A DNA stretch of 64,000 bases from a virus, in the IMG/VR virus record IMGVR_UViG_3300036770_008728, positions 1 through 64,000 of that record, one strand, 5' to 3'. Below the pieces are notes generated by a model that was given only the letters and a program-made list of their open reading frames with translations, did not search any database and was not told the origin of the DNA. Positions 1,498 through 60,114 of the stretch are shown here, one piece after another. Numbering within the stretch: position 1 is the first letter of the stretch; every line of letters begins with the position of its first letter. The position numbers and the translations under genes were made by a program.

Positions 1498-1706
1498 TGA
1501 ATTTTCTTTTGTGCTTTAAGTCGGCCAACCAGCGCCATCACTGAACCCACGGCGGTACCCAGGGTGGAAAGTACTTCAACGAGGTCCTTCTGAGCCTGCT
1601 CATCCACGTTGTAACCGTAAATACTCCCAATCTGGGAAATCACGATTACCACAACGCCAATAATGGTTTTTGACTCATACCACTTTTTTGTCACGTAGCT
1701 GTTCAT
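1494..1706 (-). CDS. Putative holin (2 TM segments)
   Basis: 70 aa, KKWYESKTI start, two hydrophobic segments, basic C-terminus; full-length conserved RBS motif upstream. Confidence 0.7.
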   Translation of the reverse strand: MNSYVTKKWYESKTIIGVVVIVISQIGSIYGYNVDEQAQKDLVEVLSTLGTAVGSVMALVGRLKAQKKIQ

Positions 1707-3644: not shown

Positions 3645-6600
3645 CGCGGTCCTCCACTAATGGCCCGAACCTCACGTTTCAGAGCTTTCAATGCTTCAAC
3701 AATTAAGCCCGTAACTGCCAAGTTTGAGACATGCAATTTCCCCTCGGACTCGTAAACTCCTTCAGGTAGAACCTTCTTAACATCTTGTGCGATAAGCCCG
3801 GCACATCTACGGTTATTTTGGTCAATCCGGTTAAAGGTTAAACCTGCCAGGTGCTCAATCAACTCCAAAGCGTTCTCTATGGGCGCCAGTCCTGTTTTAA
3901 CCCGAGCGTCCGACGTCGAAATACAGTCCGTGGCTGTTAATGTTCCCGCACAAGACGCATTACCCGCCTGTGTGACTCGGAAAGCCCAGTTCAGTTGATT
4001 ATTCAAAAATCCAATTTCTGATCCCGTGGCCATTGCTGCCCCGTGGCTCCCGAGGTACACGTAAACACTGGAACCCGCGGCGCTGTTAGCCGTCCATCCA
4101 TAATAGTTAGGTGTCCAGCTAGTTCCACCAGAGCTCAGAGATGTTACTGTTAATGTCGCATTGGTAGCAGATGTTACCCGACCCTTCGAGTCAATTTGTA
4201 AGACGGGAACCTGTGTACTGGAACCATAGGTGTTGGCTACAACCCCAGTCGTGGACAATGAAGCCGTGCCGGATAATGCTGCTTGACCATCAAAAGTACC
4301 GGGGTTCCAAACAACATCCCCACTCATACTCACAGACCGGGCAGTCGCCAGTTTGACCGCCGAGGTGGCCGTGGTGGCACTGGTGGCACTGGTAGCCGTC
4401 GTGGCGCTGGTGGCATTCCCATTTAAACTACCGTTAAACACGTTGGCGGTCAGATTACCTGAAGCATCCCTGGCGGCCACAGTACTTGCCGTGGCGGTCG
4501 TCACAGCATTTACCGACCAGGTGACAGAGTTTGATCCCGTGAAGGCGGACCCGGTAAGGTAGCTCCCTGGAGTGAGAGTTCCCCCTCCTCCGGTAGCAAT
4601 CGTAATAGAGCTTTCCCCTGTAAACGCAACACCGTTTATAGTGATGTTGTTTTTTAGCCGGGTCGCCGTTGCGGCGTTAAAAGAATTCACCGCGAGTTTT
4701 AACTGAGCAGCAGTGGCTATTTTCGCCACCGTGGACGTGCCGGCTACAACCTCGGGATCCGTCATCAGCGGTTTATTAGTAATGTTTGCCCAATCACTGG
4801 TGGTCCCTGCGGCGCCTGAGGGTACTTGGTACGCCCGGAAGTTGTGCGTTCCTTGGTAAGCTTCAGGCCAGTTATAAACCATGATCTGAACGCTGTATGT
4901 TAGAGGACCGGCCGGGGGGGTTGCTTCTGACGGAGACCAGTCAATCATGGGTAACTGCAGAGCGTACAAACCAGGCTCATCCAATGTAGCCGAACCAGAA
5001 AAGGTCTGGGTGGCAACTGTGGTGGTTCCCCGCTTAATTGTGACTTCAATAAGTGGAGTACTCGGAGCTGAGGGATAGGCTTTCATAATGCCCCGGCCAC
5101 CGTAGTTGTAATTGAATGAGATGGATGTCGCGTTGGAGTTTAGCGATGGCAAAGGAAATGTATTGGAAGAGAAAGCGCCGGAGTATGTCCGTAAACCCCC
5201 AAACTCGGGGTTCCCCGCACCGAGTTCAGAACGAAGCCAGCTGACTACACTGGCGTCGAGGTGCTTTTGTTTAACGGAGCTACCGCGGAGATATTCACCG
5301 TCCACGAACCCTACACCATTACCTACGGCGAACAGCTGAGAGTTGCTGGACATGGCCTCGATGTAGTAATTCCCCCCGAGTCTTAAATAGTTAGTGGCGT
5401 TACCGACCATTAAACTCCCAGTAATGGTGGCTTCCGTCGCAAACAGGCTATTTATGTTAATCTTGTCGGCGGTGATGGATCCTGTCACCAACAAGCTACC
5501 ATCAATAACTTCTGCAACAGTCGACCATGCACTACCTGTCCACGTTCGGGTTTCAGACCACTTTCCGGCGGGGTAACTTTGAGTTACCCGGTCAGCGACT
5601 ATTTTCCCATTGTGAGGAGCACCAGTCAGAGCAGAGTTCGCCGCAGCATCGGACCAGACTGCAGAGGAGGTTAGAACATAAACGTGAACAGTTCCCCGTC
5701 GGCCCTCGGCTCCCTTATCACCTGTTAGTTGCACCGGCGCTGACCAGCTACCAATCAGGGTGCCATCGGCATTTTTCTTCGCAGAACTCATGTAAAGGGG
5801 ATCGGTACCCGTCGGCGGGGCATCAAACCACCCAGCAGGGGCTTGACCTGTTGGGGTTGTTGGAGGTGTTGCTGACCGAATAAAGATGTAATCCACGTAT
5901 GGACCATCTTTACCTTTTTCCCCCACGATTCGAATGGCTGCAGACCACGTTACACCATTATCTGTACTCTGGCGCATGAACACGTCGAAGGCTTGGAACC
6001 CACTATGCCACGCGGCACCATCGACTGAATATTGAACCAATGTAACTGGAGCATTATCACCAGTTATTTTAACTGGCGTAGACCAAGTAACTACAATCGC
6101 CCCTGCCGCGTTTTTTGTGGCCTGTACCATCCACAGCGCGGTAGTACCCGCAGGAGTACTTGTTGTCCATCCGGCGGGTGTGGCTCCCGTTGGCGTTGCT
6201 GGCTGAGTTGCTGACCGCTGGTACCTGAACTCGATATAGTTACCATCCTCACCAGACAGTTTAATTACGTTGGACCAGGTACCTTGCAGCTGTCCCAAGG
6301 CGTTTTTTGTACCTCTGATCATCCAAAGGGCGCCTGCGCCACCCGGAGGATAATCTAACCAACCAGCGGGACTATCAACGTTTGTTGGTTGTGCCGGTTG
6401 TGTCGCGGCTCTTTGGAATCGGAAATCAATGTATTTCCCACCTTGGCCGTCTTCCCCCACAATTCGAATGGCTGTCGACCAGGTTACACCGCCGTCCGTG
6501 CTTTGGCGCATAAACATGTCGGTTTCACGGAATGCAGAGGACCAGTCATTAATACCATCTGGTGAGTACTGCACAGTTAATGTCTGAGCTGCACTGGTGA

Positions 6601-11780: not shown

Positions 11781-12271
11781 CAGAGCCTCACCAATCCAAA
11801 TTCTGGTTGAATAAACCGGCGACCCGGAAGTTTAAAGCTGTTGCCGTCAGACAGCGTACTGAGCTGCAGGCTGATAGCGATAGCATTCAGTTCTTCAACC
11901 TGAGATACATACCACACAGACATGGATGATTGTCCACTGGCCAAATCATCCGGATGCACCTCATACTTGGTGATACGGGCACCATCCATCCAACCTTCAG
12001 AGATGTAGTAGCTGAACAGGCTTTCCGGGTTGGCCAGAACTAAGCGTGGTCTGGACTGTTCGCCTCCGGCACGTTCACCCTCACCGGTCAGGCTAAAGGG
12101 AGCCAATGCCCATGTCTGGCTCTGCCAGTTCACAGTCTTTTCAGCGCAATAACGTAAAGTGACCACCGAAGCATCCGGGGCAGTAATTTGAATTTTCAGG
12201 AGTGTCAGAGGTTCGACCTGAGAGAGGGCGGCAGCATTGGCACGATAGATCTGTGGTATTTGCTGGTTCAT
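11780..12271 (-). CDS. Minor tail protein L-like
   Basis: Start moved to ATG 12271 by conserved RBS motif; VNWQSQTW...PF...G......RP.L..AN; between M and K. Confidence 0.75.
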   Translation of the reverse strand: MNQQIPQIYRANAAALSQVEPLTLLKIQITAPDASVVTLRYCAEKTVNWQSQTWALAPFSLTGEGERAGGEQSRPRLVLANPESLFSYYISEGWMDGARITKYEVHPDDLASGQSSMSVWYVSQVEELNAIAISLQLSTLSDGNSFKLPGRRFIQPEFGLVRL

Positions 12272-12307
12272 GTCTGTTAATCCCGAGTTTTTTCTGCATG
12301 ATAGCTG

Positions 12308-12339
12308 AAAAAACAAAACCCAGCCACAAGGACTGGGTT
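12308..12339 (-). terminator. Intrinsic terminator of the sRNA
   Basis: AACCCAGTC CTTGT GGCTGGGTT then TTGTTTTTT. Confidence 0.85.
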
Positions 12340-12383
12340 AACCATTAGGATTAACAAACATTGACACGAGGCCACTGCTTGCT
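12308..12383 (-). ncRNA. Predicted ~76-nt antisense sRNA complementary to the conserved RBS motif
   Basis: Promoter, 5' hairpin with G-U pairs valid only on this strand, 22-nt AUGUUUGUUAAUCCUAAUGGUU, intrinsic terminator; intergenic. Confidence 0.75.
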
Positions 12384-12390
12384 AATCCAA

Positions 12391-12419
12391 ATATTATTGG
12401 ACAACTGCGGACAAGTCAA
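12391..12419 (-). promoter_or_regulatory. Sigma70-like promoter of the sRNA
   Basis: TTGACT (12419-12414), 17 bp, TAATAT (12396-12391). Confidence 0.7.
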
Positions 12420-12448
12420 GACAACCGCAGACAAATGTTACAAATTGT
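12399..12448. repeat. Five phased (G)ACAA direct repeats over the sRNA promoter
   Basis: ggacaactgc/ggacaagtca/agacaaccgc/agacaaatgt/tacaaattgt, 10-bp period. Confidence 0.7.
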
Positions 12449-12843
12449 TAGGTTGGCTGCTGAATCAGTTTAATCGTGATGTCTTTTACCAGCCCATTTC
12501 CGTTTTTCACTGCCTCAGGTATAACCAATGGTTCCTCAAACCTAACGATCATATTCCCGTAGCGATCACTTGGATAAATAAATTCCTGATGCAGCTCATG
12601 TGCGGCATAGAAGTTTTCCAACGCCAACAAATTGAGTTTCGGCTGAATCGTCGCGGATAGCACGTTGTTACTGTCCTTGAACCACCATAAACCATCAAAC
12701 CGAAGTTGCAGGCTCTTCATCGCTGGGGCATTTGGCTTTGTCGTGTAAGTCCAGTTACCACCCAGTTTTACCTGGGCGCCACGCTTTGGATAGGACACTG
12801 AAGTCACATGGGTTGGAAAATCGAAAGTTTGTAGGGCCATCAC
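12448..12843 (-). CDS. Minor (distal) tail protein M-like
   Basis: Directly after tape measure; LENFY..H.....F motif; size. Confidence 0.7.
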   Translation of the reverse strand: MMALQTFDFPTHVTSVSYPKRGAQVKLGGNWTYTTKPNAPAMKSLQLRFDGLWWFKDSNNVLSATIQPKLNLLALENFYAAHELHQEFIYPSDRYGNMIVRFEEPLVIPEAVKNGNGLVKDITIKLIQQPT

Positions 12844-15800
12844 ATATCTCCAGTGCTAATACGTTTGACTAATTTCTTCGTGGTAGAGTCCCGCATCAGC
12901 GCCTTGTTAACGACAACCAACATGGAATTCTCATCCATCGAATTGGCCTTCTCATCTTCCGATACCACCCAGACGTTAACTACGGCTTCACGCCCGGAGG
13001 ATTCTGAACGTTCTCCGGACGGCATCGCCTCCAGAGACTTCACCGAACCACGGTCCATATTGTTCAGCGTTCTTACGGTATCCACACCCAATGCCTGAAC
13101 AGCCGCACGACGCAACACGAATTCACCCTGGGCCGCGTGAACCAAAGTGCTATCTCGTGTTTGCATACCGCTGGTGATTAAACCACCGGAGGCATATCGT
13201 TTTGGTGCACCCACCTGACCACCGTTCCATAGAGGTTGAGCTCCAGTAGCCATCGAAAGATCCATCTTTGGCGCGAATGATGAAATCGCAAAACTTATCA
13301 GTTGCTGCATCAGGGCGTTGGCTGCAATCTGCATCGCCACATCAGTCAAACTTTGCAGAATGCTGGCAGCAAAACCACGGAAGGATTCACCCGCAGTCAT
13401 GGAGCCTGTTGCGAACTGAGTAAAGAAGTTGCCCAGGCTGCTCCCTGCACCATCCAAAACACTCTTAAGACCCAGAGCTGCTTCGGTCAGACCATCCATG
13501 CCTTCGTAAGCCTTTGACGATTGTGTCAGGGCATAGTCAAACGCATTACGGGCTTGCTGGCCCAGTCCGCCGGCTGCAGTGCCCGCAGAGGTAAACTCAC
13601 CTTCACCGGCCAGTATCTGCTTATCCGTCTGATATGAACCACCTTTAACAATGGCCTGTACCCGGCGACGATCTTGGCTGAGAAATGGTTTATCGCGGAG
13701 CTCAGCCATGGCGGCATTGCCCCGCATCGCATTAGTTTGTTGGCCTGTCTCATAGGTGTTTTTGTCGATTGAGCCCTGCAGTTCCTGAATTTTCTTATTG
13801 TTGTCCTCGATAGTGGGCGTCAGCTTGTTAATTTCCTCCTGATACCGGCGGGCTTCAGCAACGCTCATATTTGGTAATGCTGCAGTTAATTCACTGACAC
13901 GGGCCTGCTTGACTCTGTTGTCCGCCTGATAGGCCGAGATTTCCTGCTGCATCGATCTGACAGCTGTTTGGCTGGCCCGCTCAATCAGAGGGATGCTGAG
14001 CAGGTAGGCCTGTTTCTGACCCTCACTACCCAAGCCGGCGTCATCGGCACGGCCCACCAACTTATCGGCTTGGCGCTTCAGTTCATCCGCCCGGTTTTTC
14101 TCTTTTTCCGCGGCGGCAAGCTGCGCCTTCAAACGGGCAGATTCCTCAGCGTTCGTTTTGTCAAAGTACTGATCGGCGGCCCGGGCAATTTCCTTGGAGT
14201 AGGTCCTCGACACACCGGACAGACGGAAGTCACCTTTTGCAAACAATGAACCGGCTTGCAGGCGGGCCCGTTGCCGGTTTGCGTTCTCGGCGTTACTCCC
14301 CAGACGACTGTCGAGCGCATCACGGGAACTGGCCTGTATTTGTTCCAGCTGCGTCAGGTCTTCACCAGCTTCAGCCTTTGAAATCTCCAGCTGCAGAGCC
14401 GATTGTTTACGTAGCAACGCGGCAATAGCTTTCTCCAGTCGCTCGATATCCTTCAGGTTGTTCGCATCACTGAGCTCCAGTTCCCGAAGCTCCAGTTCGG
14501 CTTCAACACTTCCACCCTCAGCCCGATTCTGACGTTTGAGGGAACGTAGAGCAGATGGGGCGGCAGAGGACTGTGCACTACGTGTTTTGGCCAGGGCACC
14601 ATTAATAAACTCGGGGTAGCGTGAGTCCGTCAGTACTTTGTTGAGTAGTTCCGCCGGCAATTTAGACTTAGCCAGTTCGGTTTGAACGAAGGCTTTAATT
14701 TCTTGGTTGAGGCCCCGAGCCTCAGTCTCAGACTGGCCACGGTACTCCGTCAGGCCCCGGTACAGTCCCAGGGCGTCTTTACCGTATTGTTTTGAGATCT
14801 GCCCATTTCGTTCGGCAACAGATTCCACAAATGTATTGGCTCGTGCACCGAACTGGCGTTTTACGGCCTCCACGATTGCAACGATTTGCTGTTGTTGTGG
14901 GAGCCTGTCTGACTTCTGCAGTTGATTCAGAATGTCATCCACAATCTGAATTTGACCCTCAATATCTTTTTTGGCCAGCTCCAACTCGGCCATTACGCTT
15001 TCCGGTTTTACATAATTGGCGTTGGCTCGGGCCTTCAACAGCTCGGGTTTTGCATCCATTTCCTGCGTTAAAAGAATGAGGTCTGTCAGTCGACCTTTTA
15101 GGGTTTTTTCCAATGCCACGATATCTTCTCTCGGGCTGTTTAGATTTAAACCCTTACCGGCTGATAGCAGTTTTGTGAATGGAGAATCACCGGTATTGAA
15201 CTGGCGATTATTCGCTTTCAAACCCAAGAAATTTGCGAGTTCCGGGTTAAAGGTAGACACAACACTGGTGGTATACCGGTTCTGAGGCCCCATGATGCCC
15301 TGACCGGATTGAGACTGCCCCTGATATCCGGCCAGTAAACCGAACTGGGCCTTAGCTTCATTTCTGGCGGCATCCGACTGACGTGCCAGGTCGATCTCAG
15401 TAAAGGCAATCATCCGACCGCGTAACTCTTCCAGCTTCCCAATCAGGGTATCAAATGCCGGGTTGGTCTCTTCCATGTAGAAGCCCAGATTTTTCAGCTC
15501 TGAGTTCAGCTGACCCACGAACTGGCGCATCATTTCCGGCCCGGTCTTGGCATCTTCCAGAGCCCCGCGCTTGTAGTAGGCATCAGAGATAATGGAGTCG
15601 ACTGATTTGGTACCCGCGGAGTACCTGTCCAGTCTGGCCTGTATCTGGTTGCTTTCAAACTTCGCCATATCCAATGGCTGTTGTAATCGAGCACTGCGAT
15701 TGTTGGAACTCATGGCGTAAGCAGTCAGCGCCGCCACACCTGATAAACCCCAGATCCAGGGGCCACCCAGCACTGTTCGGACCACGGCAAGCACCGCTGA

Positions 15801-39246: not shown

Positions 39247-39513
39247 TTAAACCGGTGCTGGTGGTTCTTCAGGTGGCCACGGTGGTAAATCGCCACCACC
39301 GCTCATTGGTGTAGGCGTTGGGCTCGGTTCTGGTTCAGGTGTTTTTTCCGCCGGGGTCTCAGCGGCGAGTAAAGCCTGGCCTTCAGAAGACAACGTGACC
39401 TTATCGCTTACCGATTGCTCGATCCCAGAAGCGACTGGGTTTGCTGTCACCACGGGGCTCTGGCTCGGTAATACCGTCATTTCCTTGTTCTGGTAACGGG
39501 TGTTGATATCCAT
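39247..39513 (-). CDS. Small disordered Pro-rich protein
   Basis: AAGGAG SD; DKVTLSSEGQALL and GGGDLPPWPP motifs. Confidence 0.7.
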   Translation of the reverse strand: MDINTRYQNKEMTVLPSQSPVVTANPVASGIEQSVSDKVTLSSEGQALLAAETPAEKTPEPEPSPTPTPMSGGGDLPPWPPEEPPAPV

Positions 39514-39799
39514 CTGTTTCTCCTTTGAGGGATTTTAACCAGTGGTGAGGTAGGATTTTTGCTAACCACTGCGGTAGTACGGGATTCTGTTCAATGTTGT
39601 CTTCAGAAAATAAATCCAAGACCACTAACGGATCTGGTTCCGTCAACCAAACCCATTTTCGAACAATATCAAAGCTCGTGTTGATATTGGCCTCTATGTT
39701 GTAAACGGTTTGTCTTGAGCATTTTAGTTTCTCAGCCATTTCTGCAACAGACCAATTTTTGGCCTCTCGCATTGATTTTAAGCGTTCACCTGTATCCAC
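39401..39799 (-). CDS. XRE-family HTH regulator (candidate repressor)
   Basis: GERLKSMRE...WS..EMAEKL..SRQTVYNIE; divergent from early operon. Confidence 0.85.
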   Translation of the reverse strand: MDTGERLKSMREAKNWSVAEMAEKLKCSRQTVYNIEANINTSFDIVRKWVWLTEPDPLVVLDLFSEDNIEQNPVLPQWLAKILPHHWLKSLKGETDGYQHPLPEQGNDGITEPEPRGDSKPSRFWDRAIGKR

Positions 39800-39910
39800 C
39801 TTAAGCCTTATTGTAATTATCTGTTAAGTTCTGATTATTTTTCGCTCGAAACCCTAGAAAATCATCTTTTTATCTAATTTCCGTAAGATTTTCTGTATAA
39901 AAATTCGACA

Positions 39911-39975
39911 CTTGTCCAATTAAATTGACAAGCGATTATGTATAGTCTGGGCACAAATGACAAGGTGGATTGTCT
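39911..39975. promoter_or_regulatory. Immunity-type control region
   Basis: Near-palindrome CTTGTCCAATTAAATTGACAAG; minus-strand TTGTCA (39963-39958), 17 bp, CATAAT (39940-39935). Confidence 0.6.
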
Positions 39976-40193
39976 GTTATTTGTACTATTTAGCCATTAG
40001 GATTTAAAACAAAATTAAGAGCGCCAAAGGGCGAACTTTTAGTGTCAGAGGGATTTGCACGGATCGCCACTGACCATTAGGATTAACAAACATCTGTTTG
40101 TCATGGGGCTGTACATCGGCCCCTATAACTTGCTCTGTAAACCGGAGCCATTTGCTTCTAAAACGAAGTAACGAACCATTAGGATTAACAATT

Positions 40194-40520
40194 ATGCTGC
40201 ACTTCTACAGTCAAGCTGATCATCAGCTGTACCTCCAAGCTATATCCCAGCCAGTCACCGGCAAAGCACTACAGGAAATGGTTAACCGCAAAATTAGCGG
40301 CGATGAGCCACGCTCGTTATTCCTGGCGCCGGGTAATTCCAGTACAGACAAAGACGCGAATGGTGTCTCTACGTATTTCGACTGGATGTGGTTCAAAACT
40401 CCCTACAACGAAGAGGGCCAGCCAATTCCTGTTGTTATTGGCCAGACAGATTTAAAGCCATACCGGATTATGAACGGCGGTTTTCTGCTGAGTAACGGTC
40501 AGTGGTCTTCACACTCGTAA
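40194..40520 (+). CDS. Hypothetical protein
   Basis: Start ATG 40194 by conserved RBS motif. Confidence 0.75.
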   Translation: MLHFYSQADHQLYLQAISQPVTGKALQEMVNRKISGDEPRSLFLAPGNSSTDKDANGVSTYFDWMWFKTPYNEEGQPIPVVIGQTDLKPYRIMNGGFLLSNGQWSSHS

Positions 40521-43588: not shown

Positions 43589-44392
43589 ATGAGTAATTAT
43601 TACGGTTATACCGAAAAGTACTTAGACCAGTGGCCGCGAATGGTGGAGCTTGAAACACTCTTTCCAGTCGCAGGGTATCGGGCTGGAATGTGGCATGGTG
43701 CGGTTATTTCGGAAGATTTGAAAACCGTAGTAACCCCGTCACACAACGTAAACATGAATGACCCTATTGGCCATTTATTAGGTATCTGGGATTCTGGGTA
43801 TGTCCCAGACCCGCTGTTTGAGAGCTCTGCAGGTGTTTTTGGTCGCTTTCTTCAATATAGTTATAACCGTACAAGTGATCCCTTCGCAGATGACCCGTTT
43901 TTGGATCAAATCAAGGGCGGTTTTACCTTCACAGGGAACCATCTTCAAATTTCTCACGGGTTCACTATCTACACTGCGAATTTAGACTTGGCTAAGTATC
44001 TGTTAACCCGGCTGTCTGAAATTTTTTCCAGGGATGTGTACTGTACAAGCGCTCTATTAGCCAGACATGGACGCACCCAGGCACACCATCTTTACTACTC
44101 AAAATTATATGGTTTCTCGACAGTACGTGGAGATCAGCACGAGCAGATCCAGCAGATTTTGTCGGGCCAAGTCCTGTGTAAGGCCTCAGACCATCATAAC
44201 CGACAGTCTTGGATTACGTACCTGGCCAGTGAAGCCACCTACTTGGGGTTTCGAAAAGATGTCGATTTGGGCGAATTTCTTCGCAAGAAATTATCTGACC
44301 CCGAGGAGTACTTTAACCAGAAGTTACCTTGGAATTATTCACCGAAGTATCCGGTGATTTCTAACTACTTACTCGACCAGTACGTAGGTTAA
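43589..44392 (+). CDS. Hypothetical protein
   Basis: Conserved RBS motif; bounded by two hairpin-motif cassettes. Confidence 0.8.
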   Translation: MSNYYGYTEKYLDQWPRMVELETLFPVAGYRAGMWHGAVISEDLKTVVTPSHNVNMNDPIGHLLGIWDSGYVPDPLFESSAGVFGRFLQYSYNRTSDPFADDPFLDQIKGGFTFTGNHLQISHGFTIYTANLDLAKYLLTRLSEIFSRDVYCTSALLARHGRTQAHHLYYSKLYGFSTVRGDQHEQIQQILSGQVLCKASDHHNRQSWITYLASEATYLGFRKDVDLGEFLRKKLSDPEEYFNQKLPWNYSPKYPVISNYLLDQYVG

Positions 44393-46101: not shown

Positions 46102-46508
46102 ACCTACGTGAACAATTAAGTTTTGGGCGTGGTGTCCGCTGCTTTATCAATCAGCCGAGTACACTACAGCCATTGCATCAATACAGTGGCCAGCGTTGTA
46201 TTGCCTTTCAGGGCGATCATTCACCGGAAAGCGGTATGGTCGATATCTACTTCACTCATGGTGAAGTGAGTTCCATAGTGGCGCCCATTTTGAGTCTGAG
46301 CCCACTGCATAGCCCAGGAGACAAAGAGCTGTATGTCGTTTGTGGTTATGACGGTGATTACGATAACCAGTGGACTCGGCTTATCGAGGCAGATAGTTAT
46401 GATGCTGCTGAGACTCGGCTGAGGGACACCCATTTTCCGGACGTGAACAAGGTCCACATACACTTCTCGGGACGACTGACCGATATGTTAAACAACGTTC
46501 TGAAATAA
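46098..46508 (+). CDS. Hypothetical two-domain protein
   Basis: INQPSTLQPLH motif; C-terminal domain shared with next gene. Confidence 0.75.
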   Translation: MNLREQLSFGRGVRCFINQPSTLQPLHQYSGQRCIAFQGDHSPESGMVDIYFTHGEVSSIVAPILSLSPLHSPGDKELYVVCGYDGDYDNQWTRLIEADSYDAAETRLRDTHFPDVNKVHIHFSGRLTDMLNNVLK

Positions 46509-46531
46509 ACCCTCAGAGGAAATAAATCCAA

Positions 46532-46927
46532 ATGACTGAACAAAAACACTCACCCATAGATATTGGTGTTCGACTGAATTTGACGAGCAACTTCAACAAG
46601 GAAGCTGGTTTGCTTGAACTCACGGTTGAATCAAAAATCAACTCTGTCACGGAGCAGCTGAGTCGTGATGTCTTCAACCTGCGGGAGCAAGCGCTTCGCA
46701 ATGCGTTGATTGAGCTGGGCTGGATCCCCCCAGAAACGGCTGAAAAGCTCTATCTGGTGTCCGGCTATGTTGGAGATCCAGAATCCACGCAAACCAGCCT
46801 GGTTGAGGCGCCGAACTCGAAGGTGGCCGAGGACATCTTTGTTCGTAAGCACTTTCCCGATGAGATGAACTGGGACATCCATTTTGTCGAGACATTGACC
46901 AACCTACTGGCCGATTCGCTGAAATAA
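46532..46927 (+). CDS. Hypothetical two-domain protein
   Basis: C-terminal domain paralogous to previous gene. Confidence 0.75.
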   Translation: MTEQKHSPIDIGVRLNLTSNFNKEAGLLELTVESKINSVTEQLSRDVFNLREQALRNALIELGWIPPETAEKLYLVSGYVGDPESTQTSLVEAPNSKVAEDIFVRKHFPDEMNWDIHFVETLTNLLADSLK

Positions 46928-59939: not shown

Positions 59940-60114
59940 TTACACTTGTCCTCAGCTAATACCTCGTAACATTGGTCAACCCCCGGTACTGGGGGTTTCT
60001 TTGAGGTTTAGCTTGAGACTGAGCGTATCGGCCTTGGACCTTCCAAGGTTCAATTCCGATGCTCTTAGCATCTCCACAATCTGGGATTAACAATCATAAT
60101 CGAGGTAAAAAATC

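Follow-up and report, generated by a model that had tools for sequence, protein, structure and literature searches.

We propose that the early leader of the provirus record IMGVR_UViG_3300036770_008728 carries docking sites for a small RNA (sRNA) of the same phage. The window, that is, the whole stretch of DNA analyzed, comprises bases 1-64,000 of this 84,406-bp IMG/VR provirus record (referred to below as G000), and the leader is the region of ~230 nt between ~39960 and 40193, upstream of the first early gene (gene 1). It carries three copies of a ribosome-binding site (RBS) motif used throughout the phage, and two of the three have no gene of their own. Judged from sequence comparison, these gene-less copies are functional sites related to the sRNA and not chance occurrences, because they match the sRNA at least as well as the real RBSs do, lie in the segment most conserved relative to the metagenome contig L135, and recur in relatives in which motif and sRNA have co-varied. 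The reading that we favor, at slightly less than an even chance, is that the leader copies are conserved docking sites through which the sRNA would shut down the early transcript from its 5' end. Since related phages keep the same arrangement, the early genes are probably controlled from the front of the message.

The leader of G000 contains the following elements, with the hairpins taken from the predicted fold:

39993-40004, plus strand: copy 1, a gene-less partial motif, 11 nt of it exact (CCATTAGGATT at 39994-40004)
40014-40043, plus strand: hairpin H1, consisting of an A-tract, CGCC-AAAG-GGCG and a U-tract
40044-40074, plus strand: hairpin H2, whose 3' arm extends as far as the first two bases of copy 2
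40071-40093, plus strand: copy 2, the full motif without a canonical start, with the 21 nt ACCATTAGGATTAACAAACAT at 40073-40093
40086-40101, plus strand: hairpin h3, ACAAAC-ATCT-GTTTGT
40103-40171, plus strand: possible 22-codon frame from ATG 40103 to TAA 40169-40171, spanning the hairpins after copy 2
40105-40123, plus strand: hairpin H4, with the loop TACAT
40132-40148, plus strand: hairpin H5, with the loop TAAAC and a weak terminator-like call, the only one in this leader
40152-40171, plus strand: hairpin H6
40175-40190, plus strand: copy 3, the real RBS motif ACCATTAGGATTAACA, followed by ATG 40194 of gene 1
40194-40520, plus strand: gene 1, encoding 108 amino acids that match no known family

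This layout agrees with a first-pass annotation of the same DNA, which had reported three motif copies, the third being the real RBS, with several hairpins among them; besides ACAAAC-ATCT-GTTTGT, whose folding it had suggested, five more hairpins are predicted. Copy 1 had been described as lacking an ATG, and after 39994-40004 there is indeed no ATG, GTG or TTG until a GTG at ~40041. Copy 2 had been called a perfect 21-nt match followed by CTG, and its 21-mer is identical to 12341-12361 in the sRNA gene. Its description as ATG-less is correct insofar as no canonical start directly follows, but the ATG at 40103 of the 22-codon frame and a TTG at 40098, which lies in frame with gene 1, come soon after. 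An N-terminal extension of gene 1 from this TTG was considered and rejected, because two 1-nt deletions in L135 break the frame.

The sRNA gene is located 27.6 kb from the early leader between two minus-strand tail genes, where a plus-strand motif copy at 12341-12356 reads as the anti-motif on the minus strand. Its predicted features are:

12308-12419, minus strand: anti-motif sRNA gene, with an RNA of ~76 nt running from ~12384 to 12308
12419..12391, minus strand: promoter-like site TTGACT-17-TAATAT, from the promoter scan
12339..12317, minus strand: intrinsic terminator, a 9-bp hairpin and a T-run

The sRNA matches ~30-40 RBSs across the genome, and homologous sRNA genes with co-varied anti-motifs are present in Pseudoalteromonas phage KB12-38, the closest GenBank phage (TerL 54% identical, same gene order), and in the records G403, G404/G405, G406, G408, and G409. 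The predicted folds of the sRNAs of G000 and KB12-38 have a 5' arm that covers part of the anti-motif and a short exposed stretch before the terminator. In G000 this exposed stretch is predicted to pair with the motif's 5' half, the very part retained in copy 1, whose remainder is degenerate up to ~40021; in KB12-38 it pairs with a 5' extension found in the leader copy, the first RBS and site 66180. The 5' arm itself (12352-12384, minus strand) is a degenerate motif copy and so a built-in mimic, and the KB12-38 sRNA folds likewise. C4 and IsrK are among the curated phage antisense RNA families in Rfam; the whole window searched at the gathering score and the leader (39850-40300) searched at E up to 1 gave no Rfam match, and 12250-12450 gave only matches far below threshold to unrelated families.

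The first line of evidence for the leader sites is their complementarity to the sRNA. In every genome, and by the same method, sites were ranked by their longest run complementary to the sRNA of their own phage, the sRNA gene itself being excluded. Energies were obtained by duplex prediction with the anti-motif segment on motif sites only; duplex folding of the full-length sRNA over the whole genome was discarded, as it gave inflated energies with huge interior loops. Copy 2 of G000 ranks first among 56 non-self sites with a run of at least 13, with a Watson-Crick run of 21 nt that becomes 23 contiguous nt (40071-40093) if one G-U pair is allowed, a length at which it ties with site 43559. Its predicted duplex is one continuous 23-bp helix of -33.3 kcal/mol, the only uninterrupted helix of this length in G000. 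The gene-less leader copy of KB12-38 is first of 22 non-self sites by run (22 nt) and first of 51 by duplex energy (-40.3 kcal/mol), the first RBS being second at -35.9 kcal/mol. The two gene-less leader copies of G403 take the top two places among 23 non-self sites (18 and 17 nt; the real first RBS has 13), and the best gene-less copy of G408 is third of 46 (17 nt). For G406 it is the first early RBS itself that ranks first of 34 (17 nt), so that four of the six full or near-full records (G000, KB12-38, G403, and G406) have their top-ranked site where the early operon begins, at its 5' end. Pairing with the sRNA at least as good as that of the real targets, as expected of a sponge, is thus found at rank 1 in G000, KB12-38, and G403.

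The second line of evidence is conservation. Contig L135, which was found through a metagenome scan, encodes a first early protein that is 83% identical, and all three copies are present in it. Between G000 and L135, identity is 94.9% over the leader and 98% (3 differences in 151) over its core (40020-40170), compared with 79.8% for the next gene, where 41 of 66 differences are at third codon positions, and 61-92% for the other nine segments, making the leader the best conserved part of 5.8 kb. Copy 2 is 100% identical and the match of copy 1 is slightly longer in L135. The G-to-A change at position 40019 turns a G-U pair of H1 into A-U, and H2 has a single substitution, at 40060. Contigs of four sequencing runs that cover the leader were also compared, at 80% likeness, and only the indel at 40150 was used from them: a 1-nt deletion there, in L135 and in the contigs of runs X11 and X9, shifts the 22-codon frame. 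The contig of run X9 departs from the window at 40073, just upstream of copy 2, where another AAAG-loop hairpin, differing in its stem, stands immediately before the copy together with a T-run, which hints that a hairpin-plus-copy module is kept and that H2 is optional.

The third line of evidence is recurrence in distant relatives, which were found by tblastn with TerL and by a TerL-alignment scan of IMG/VR. The motif of KB12-38 is of the GGATTGAC type, its sRNA gene with the matching anti-motif occupies the homologous gap between tail genes, and its gene-less leader copy lies ~45 nt after a promoter-like site (TGGACA-17-TATTCT) and 50 nt before the real RBS. In G403, a complete IMG/VR genome of 78.7 kb, the motif deviates slightly and the sRNA matches it; two gene-less copies occupy the leader that separates the first early gene from a divergent gene on the minus strand. 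Two positions, a substitution and a 1-nt indel, distinguish the motif of KB12-38 from that of G403, and the leader copies track the sRNA of their own phage. In G408, a 567-amino-acid early gene is preceded by three motif copies whose frames have only 1 to 16 codons. The region 43800-43995 of that genome, before the same gene, has four GTGTGACACC repeats interleaved with three to four motif copies, an array that is partly a tandem duplication and resembles an operator array fused to sRNA sites.

The sRNA sites are embedded in a motif that is used phage-wide. The 16-mer of copy 3 occurs 21 times in the window at up to three mismatches, against 0.40 expected, and the 11-nt motif core 13 times at up to one mismatch, against 0.82 expected and a maximum of 4 in 100 shuffles. 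The motif includes the Shine-Dalgarno (SD) core. When five 8-mer variants were examined across the whole G000 record, an ATG was found 2-7 nt after the motif in 34 of 54 occurrences, all in gene orientation; 12 of the 20 occurrences without ATG were set aside by eye as chance words lacking the motif flanks. A role of the motif as a -35 promoter element was rejected, as no -10 at proper spacing could be read in G000, KB12-38 or G408. Among 28 TerL-related IMG/VR loci, a dominant TTGACGA/TCGACGA-type word precedes start codons in ~13 (L137-L146, L152, L153, and L156; TerL at least 50%), and the other 15, which are more distant, have no dominant RBS word and were set aside; Achromobacter phage JWF (TerL 48%) is also without one and has no gap at the position of the sRNA gene. 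Because only ~13 of these relatives show such a word, the motif-sRNA system seems to be confined to one subclade.

We infer that transcription of the leader begins upstream of the copies and that the sRNA binds the leader, and the consequences of this binding are inferred likewise. According to the docking-site reading, the sRNA would attach to the early transcript, either nascent or finished, ahead of gene 1, probably with the aid of a FinO/ProQ-like protein of the phage; there, copy 1 would offer partial pairing with the exposed stretch of the sRNA and copy 2 the longest perfect duplex in the genome. Binding would turn down the whole message from its 5' end, by one of two routes: the double strand of two helical turns could be cut, exposing the message to decay, or transcription could be stopped before gene 1 by factor-dependent termination. 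Such a shutdown at the leader would act on top of the blocking of single RBSs further along.

Several observations weigh against this reading. Other early RBSs of G000 pair with the sRNA nearly as far (20-23 nt), so that copy 2 stands out only slightly, and the high identity to L135 could in part reflect a recently exchanged immunity module. No plus-strand promoter-like site was found upstream of the G000 leader in the promoter scan, and copy 1 would be truncated if transcription started at ~39996. No terminator is conserved behind the copies, none being called in the leaders of KB12-38 or G403; H1 weakly resembles a terminator and the terminator scan made no call there. Among the relatives, the early leader of G406 has no gene-less copy, the only comparable gene-less copy of G404/G405 has 12 nt of complementarity and is in another leader, with a strong terminator after it (their top-ranked site being the RBS of an internal gene), and two of the G408 copies sit in tandem repeats, duplications that may be young. 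G409 is a 45%-complete fragment and yielded nothing. The G000 leader folds more stably than most shuffled sequences (z = -2.8; 3 of 200 shuffles fold as well), that of KB12-38 forms a row of stable hairpins (z = -4.2), and in the centroid structures the copies are unpaired between hairpins in both, as is copy 2 of G403. The ensemble unpaired probabilities of the copies, however, are 0.39-0.70 (0.61 for copy 1) against 0.39-0.47 for the whole leaders, and since these values are only moderate the copies are displayed only in a soft sense.

Other explanations of the leader region were tried and rejected. Pairing is not taken to trigger a structural switch, since hairpin folding does not depend on the copies. 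The minus strand of the leader was considered as a place for a second sRNA gene, an idea dismissed because no promoter-like site is present there. A lambda-type boxA near 40017-40024 is, by our reading, on the wrong strand; L135 does not keep it, and chance alone would yield ~2 such 8-mers. At 46330-46560 of G404, minus strand (L175 ~6330-6560; also in G405), a gene-less copy and a degenerate second one are followed by a 12-bp intrinsic terminator, with iteron-like repeats adjoining and a promoter that was read by eye only (15-nt spacer) and has no scan call. Either an attenuated leader or a short RNA carrying the sense motif may be encoded by this stretch.

The first-pass annotation had suggested that the gene-less copies act as a sponge or as an attenuator. 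That claim is supported in part, as the copies are sRNA-related, conserved and recurring. We consider it unlikely, although worth weighing, that the leader copies are decoys, harmless sites of high affinity that bind up the earliest sRNA molecules and perhaps destroy them through coupled cleavage, so that early genes would be translated until the sRNA outnumbers the leaders, or a lysogenic sRNA pool would be cleared on induction. As is to be expected of decoys, the gene-less copies rank at or near the top of the matches in G000, KB12-38, and G403, and at 90-190 nt from the first start codon copies 1 and 2 are too far away for a direct block. The timer form of this explanation also draws on TTGTCC-type boxes, which are present at the sRNA promoter and in the early promoter region of both G000 and KB12-38 and suggest that the sRNA and the early operon are switched together, as suits a timer. 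Yet two leader sites would add little to the nine sites with a run of at least 18 and the 57 with a run of at least 13 in G000 (both counts including the sRNA gene and copy 2), and a plain decoy has no need of hairpins between the copies that are 98% conserved.

The boxes themselves deserve description. Over the sRNA promoter of G000 (window 12390-12435), the GACAA/TTGTC(C) boxes form four direct repeats in 10-bp phase, and they recur around the early and XRE promoters. The features on that side are:

39912-39975: TTGTC/GACAA boxes near the regulator and early promoter region
39401-39799, minus strand: divergent helix-turn-helix (XRE-type) regulator gene, facing the first early gene
39963..39935, minus strand: promoter-like site of this regulator gene, from the promoter scan

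In KB12-38 the boxes are at L123 41397-41447 and at ~13905-13930, with a TTGTCC just before the -10 hexamer of the sRNA promoter, and at the two divergent promoters the TTGTCC box makes up the -35 of each. The sRNA and the early operon may be switched together by a single DNA-binding protein.

A second alternative, which we regard as less probable again, is that the leader copies are independent of the sRNA, serving as a ribosome standby site or enhancer for gene 1 or as sites for a motif-binding protein, with the sRNA match as a by-product. This would be in keeping with the SD core of the motif and its normal position 2-7 nt before an ATG. Comparable start-associated sequences (SAS) occur in Cluster K mycobacteriophages; in the available part of PMC3203893 no partner is known for them, and a small number lie away from gene starts. 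Against this stand the leader copies themselves, which retain the flanks outside the SD core that pair with the sRNA and which, in KB12-38 and G403, match the sRNA better than the real RBSs do, and the fact that flanks and sRNA change together between phages.

It is very unlikely that the copies are relics, in other words remnants without a function of their own, left behind by lost gene cassettes or by duplication at a repeat prone to recombination. The hairpin types of the leader do recur elsewhere before a motif and a gene, so that the leader looks like stacked cassette parts, copy 1 is degenerate, the G408 copies sit in tandem repeats and G406 is without such copies. However, the leader core is 98% identical where neighboring genes differ by 10-20%, gene-less copies recur in leaders of phages with different motifs, and decay would erode the top rank in complementarity. 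The recurring hairpins belong to three families, with the loops AAAG (at 40023 in the leader, 43541, and 53760), TACAT (at 40110 in the leader and 41927) and TAAAC (at 40136 in the leader and 40536, the latter with a run of seven T). The paralogues outside the leader sit 5-11 nt before a motif and a gene, with conserved loops and different stems, and the three families may be protein-binding or termination/antitermination elements.

In P1, c4 controls transcription of icd-ant through translation. A comparable role for copy 2 as the RBS of the 22-codon leader frame, whose translation the sRNA would block so that hairpins fold or Rho acts, is the least probable of the explanations, for although the frame exists, ends 3 nt before copy 3, is open in L135 (~25 codons by reading) and is preceded by a hairpin (40086-40101) that lies exactly between SD and ATG and could bring both together, it has no SD at normal spacing, 22 open codons would arise by chance about one time in three by our estimate, no corresponding ATG can be read after the leader copies of KB12-38 or G403, and the shift caused by the deletion at 40150 in L135 and in the contigs of two runs means that the peptide is not conserved.

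Gene-less copies are also found away from the early leader. Those that the first-pass annotation had placed near 60083 and 61112 are real and are followed by genes with their own SD:

60084, plus strand: gene-less copy GGATTAAC, 23 nt before ATG 60115 of a kinase-like gene with its own SD
61112, plus strand: gene-less copy GGATTAAC with AAG in place of ATG, 17 nt before ATG 61137 of a 5'-3' exonuclease gene with its own SD
70768 and 75312 of the 84,406-bp record, outside the window: further gene-less copies

At 60084, 61112, and 75312, the distance from the copy to the next start, which is served by its own SD, is 17-23 nt; an sRNA duplex at these copies would still reach the ribosome site, so that they are better seen as displaced than as idle sites. 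Homologues of the kinase-like gene have gene-less copies upstream in KB12-38 (58740) and G403 (23503) too. At 75312, as at 39384 of KB12-38 and 35320 of G403, the ATG reads AGG, which creates the SD of the start a few bases on. The start-less copies at 70768 of G000 (L136 6768) and 66180 of KB12-38 are each followed directly by a strong GC hairpin and precede a large region resembling an origin-binding helicase.

The genome also encodes a candidate partner for the sRNA:

74346-74867 of G000 (L136 10346-10867), outside the window: FinO/ProQ-domain gene, PF04352 at 43.3 bits (cut-off 27)
70661-71140 of KB12-38: FinO/ProQ-domain gene, PF04352 at 49.6 bits

A FinO/ProQ-like protein was found by tblastn in five of the six records tested (G000, KB12-38, G403, G404, and G406), and tblastn gave none in G405 (81% complete). 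As described in the available part of PMC9977716, FinO assists the pairing of an antisense RNA with an RBS, and proteins of its family usually hold RNAs by their terminator hairpins; the presence of such a protein fits an RNA-pairing system. In G406, a motif-like word occurs at ~1570-1589, minus strand, in the first codons of the FinO-like gene. It could be due to chance, or the G406 sRNA might also pair with the mRNA of its presumed chaperone.

The remainder of G000 is organized as a block of structural genes on the minus strand (those for the terminase and the capsid, and tail genes of 1999 and 2185 amino acids) and a plus-strand block of early and replication genes that starts at ~40 kb and includes a methyltransferase, a ligase and a Dda-like helicase. 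Searches for further close relatives gave little. P0003, a 68% relative, is encoded on an 83,864-bp contig. When the leader and the sRNA region were searched for by megablast or blastn in GenBank phages, E. coli genomes and plasmids, there was no match, and scans of IMG/VR with exact 16-mers and 20-mers returned single chance matches or none. The first early gene had no match by tblastn against phages, and scans with it and a tail protein, as single proteins and as small alignments, found no relatives. There were likewise no relatives in a DNA search of two metagenome-assembled genomes with TerL fragments, or among 401 genomes of one order.

Taken more broadly, the same observations can be read as an RNA master switch in a clade of temperate siphoviruses of ~75-85 kb, in which the sRNA and a FinO-like chaperone would read a phage-wide RBS code, and the gene-less sites of highest affinity, at the front of the early message, would be the decision point, acting as an off-switch or a threshold timer for the whole early operon. 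We offer this wider reading as possible but doubtful. In practical terms, the two short sites, if they work as proposed, would be a simple handle for testing RNA-based control of early genes, and the co-variation across phages supplies natural compensatory mutants.

A close known parallel is the immunity RNA of satellite phage P4. The CI RNA of P4 pairs with two untranslated leader sites, seqA and seqC, and keeps the replication and early operon off (PMC4825925, in the part available, citing Sabbattini 1995 and Briani 2000). The G000 leader likewise has two untranslated complementary sites, upstream of the first start codon at 40194. CI RNA, however, is cut from the same leader transcript, between its two targets, whereas the sRNA described here has its own promoter-like site and terminator inside the tail genes, 27.6 kb away; CI acts by premature termination, and here no terminator is conserved after the sites; and the sRNA, unlike CI, also matches RBSs genome-wide. 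Because the sRNA is not processed from the leader and no terminator is conserved, the evidence goes against a strict P4-like reading.

The c4 system is also known for extra upstream target copies and for Rho-dependent polarity. The c4 RNA of P1 and P7 is a phage RNA of ~77 nt that pairs around an RBS, blocks expression and controls ant (PMC12197685, in the part available). It acts on a single operon next to its own gene, in contrast to the genome-wide RBS motif and gene-less leader copies found here. In F-like plasmids, the antisense RNA FinP pairs with the traJ RBS aided by FinO (PMC9977716). The likeness lies in the FinO/ProQ-domain gene on the same element, in G000 and in four relatives, but FinP is encoded in cis opposite a single target, whereas the gene for the sRNA described here is distant from all targets, which would be reached in trans at many sites, some of them gene-less.

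The SAS of Cluster K are asymmetric, contain an SD core and lie 3-7 bp before many non-structural gene starts, with rare copies elsewhere (PMC3203893). The likeness is in kind only, that of an asymmetric phage-wide motif with an SD core in one orientation, as the sequences are unrelated and the host phylum differs; here, moreover, a complementary RNA gene co-varies with the motif and gene-less copies cluster in the early leader. Known sRNA sponges are usually separate or processed RNAs whose effect is shown by titration. A sponge-like activity has been described for SprY (PMC12197685, in the part available). As in bacterial sponges, an untranslated stretch of RNA mimics sRNA targets, with the difference that the sites here are within the very mRNA that would be regulated.

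The literature search returned no description of an RNA system in this phage group, and KB12-38 is named only in a listing for an Acinetobacter phage study, as far as the available part of that source goes. The available text of a 2025 review (PMC12197685) lists no antisense RNA aimed at a phage-wide RBS motif. The phage antisense RNAs known so far each act on one gene or one operon, and the sRNA described here matches dozens of RBSs. None of P4 CI, c4, FinP/FinO, and SAS combines a trans RNA, a genome-wide RBS motif and gene-less leader sites of top affinity. If the sites work as proposed, a single RNA would order the whole phage program, the leader first and single genes later, and the master switch, if true, would be a trans-acting, genome-wide counterpart of the RNA immunity of P4 and P1, with hierarchical target sites.

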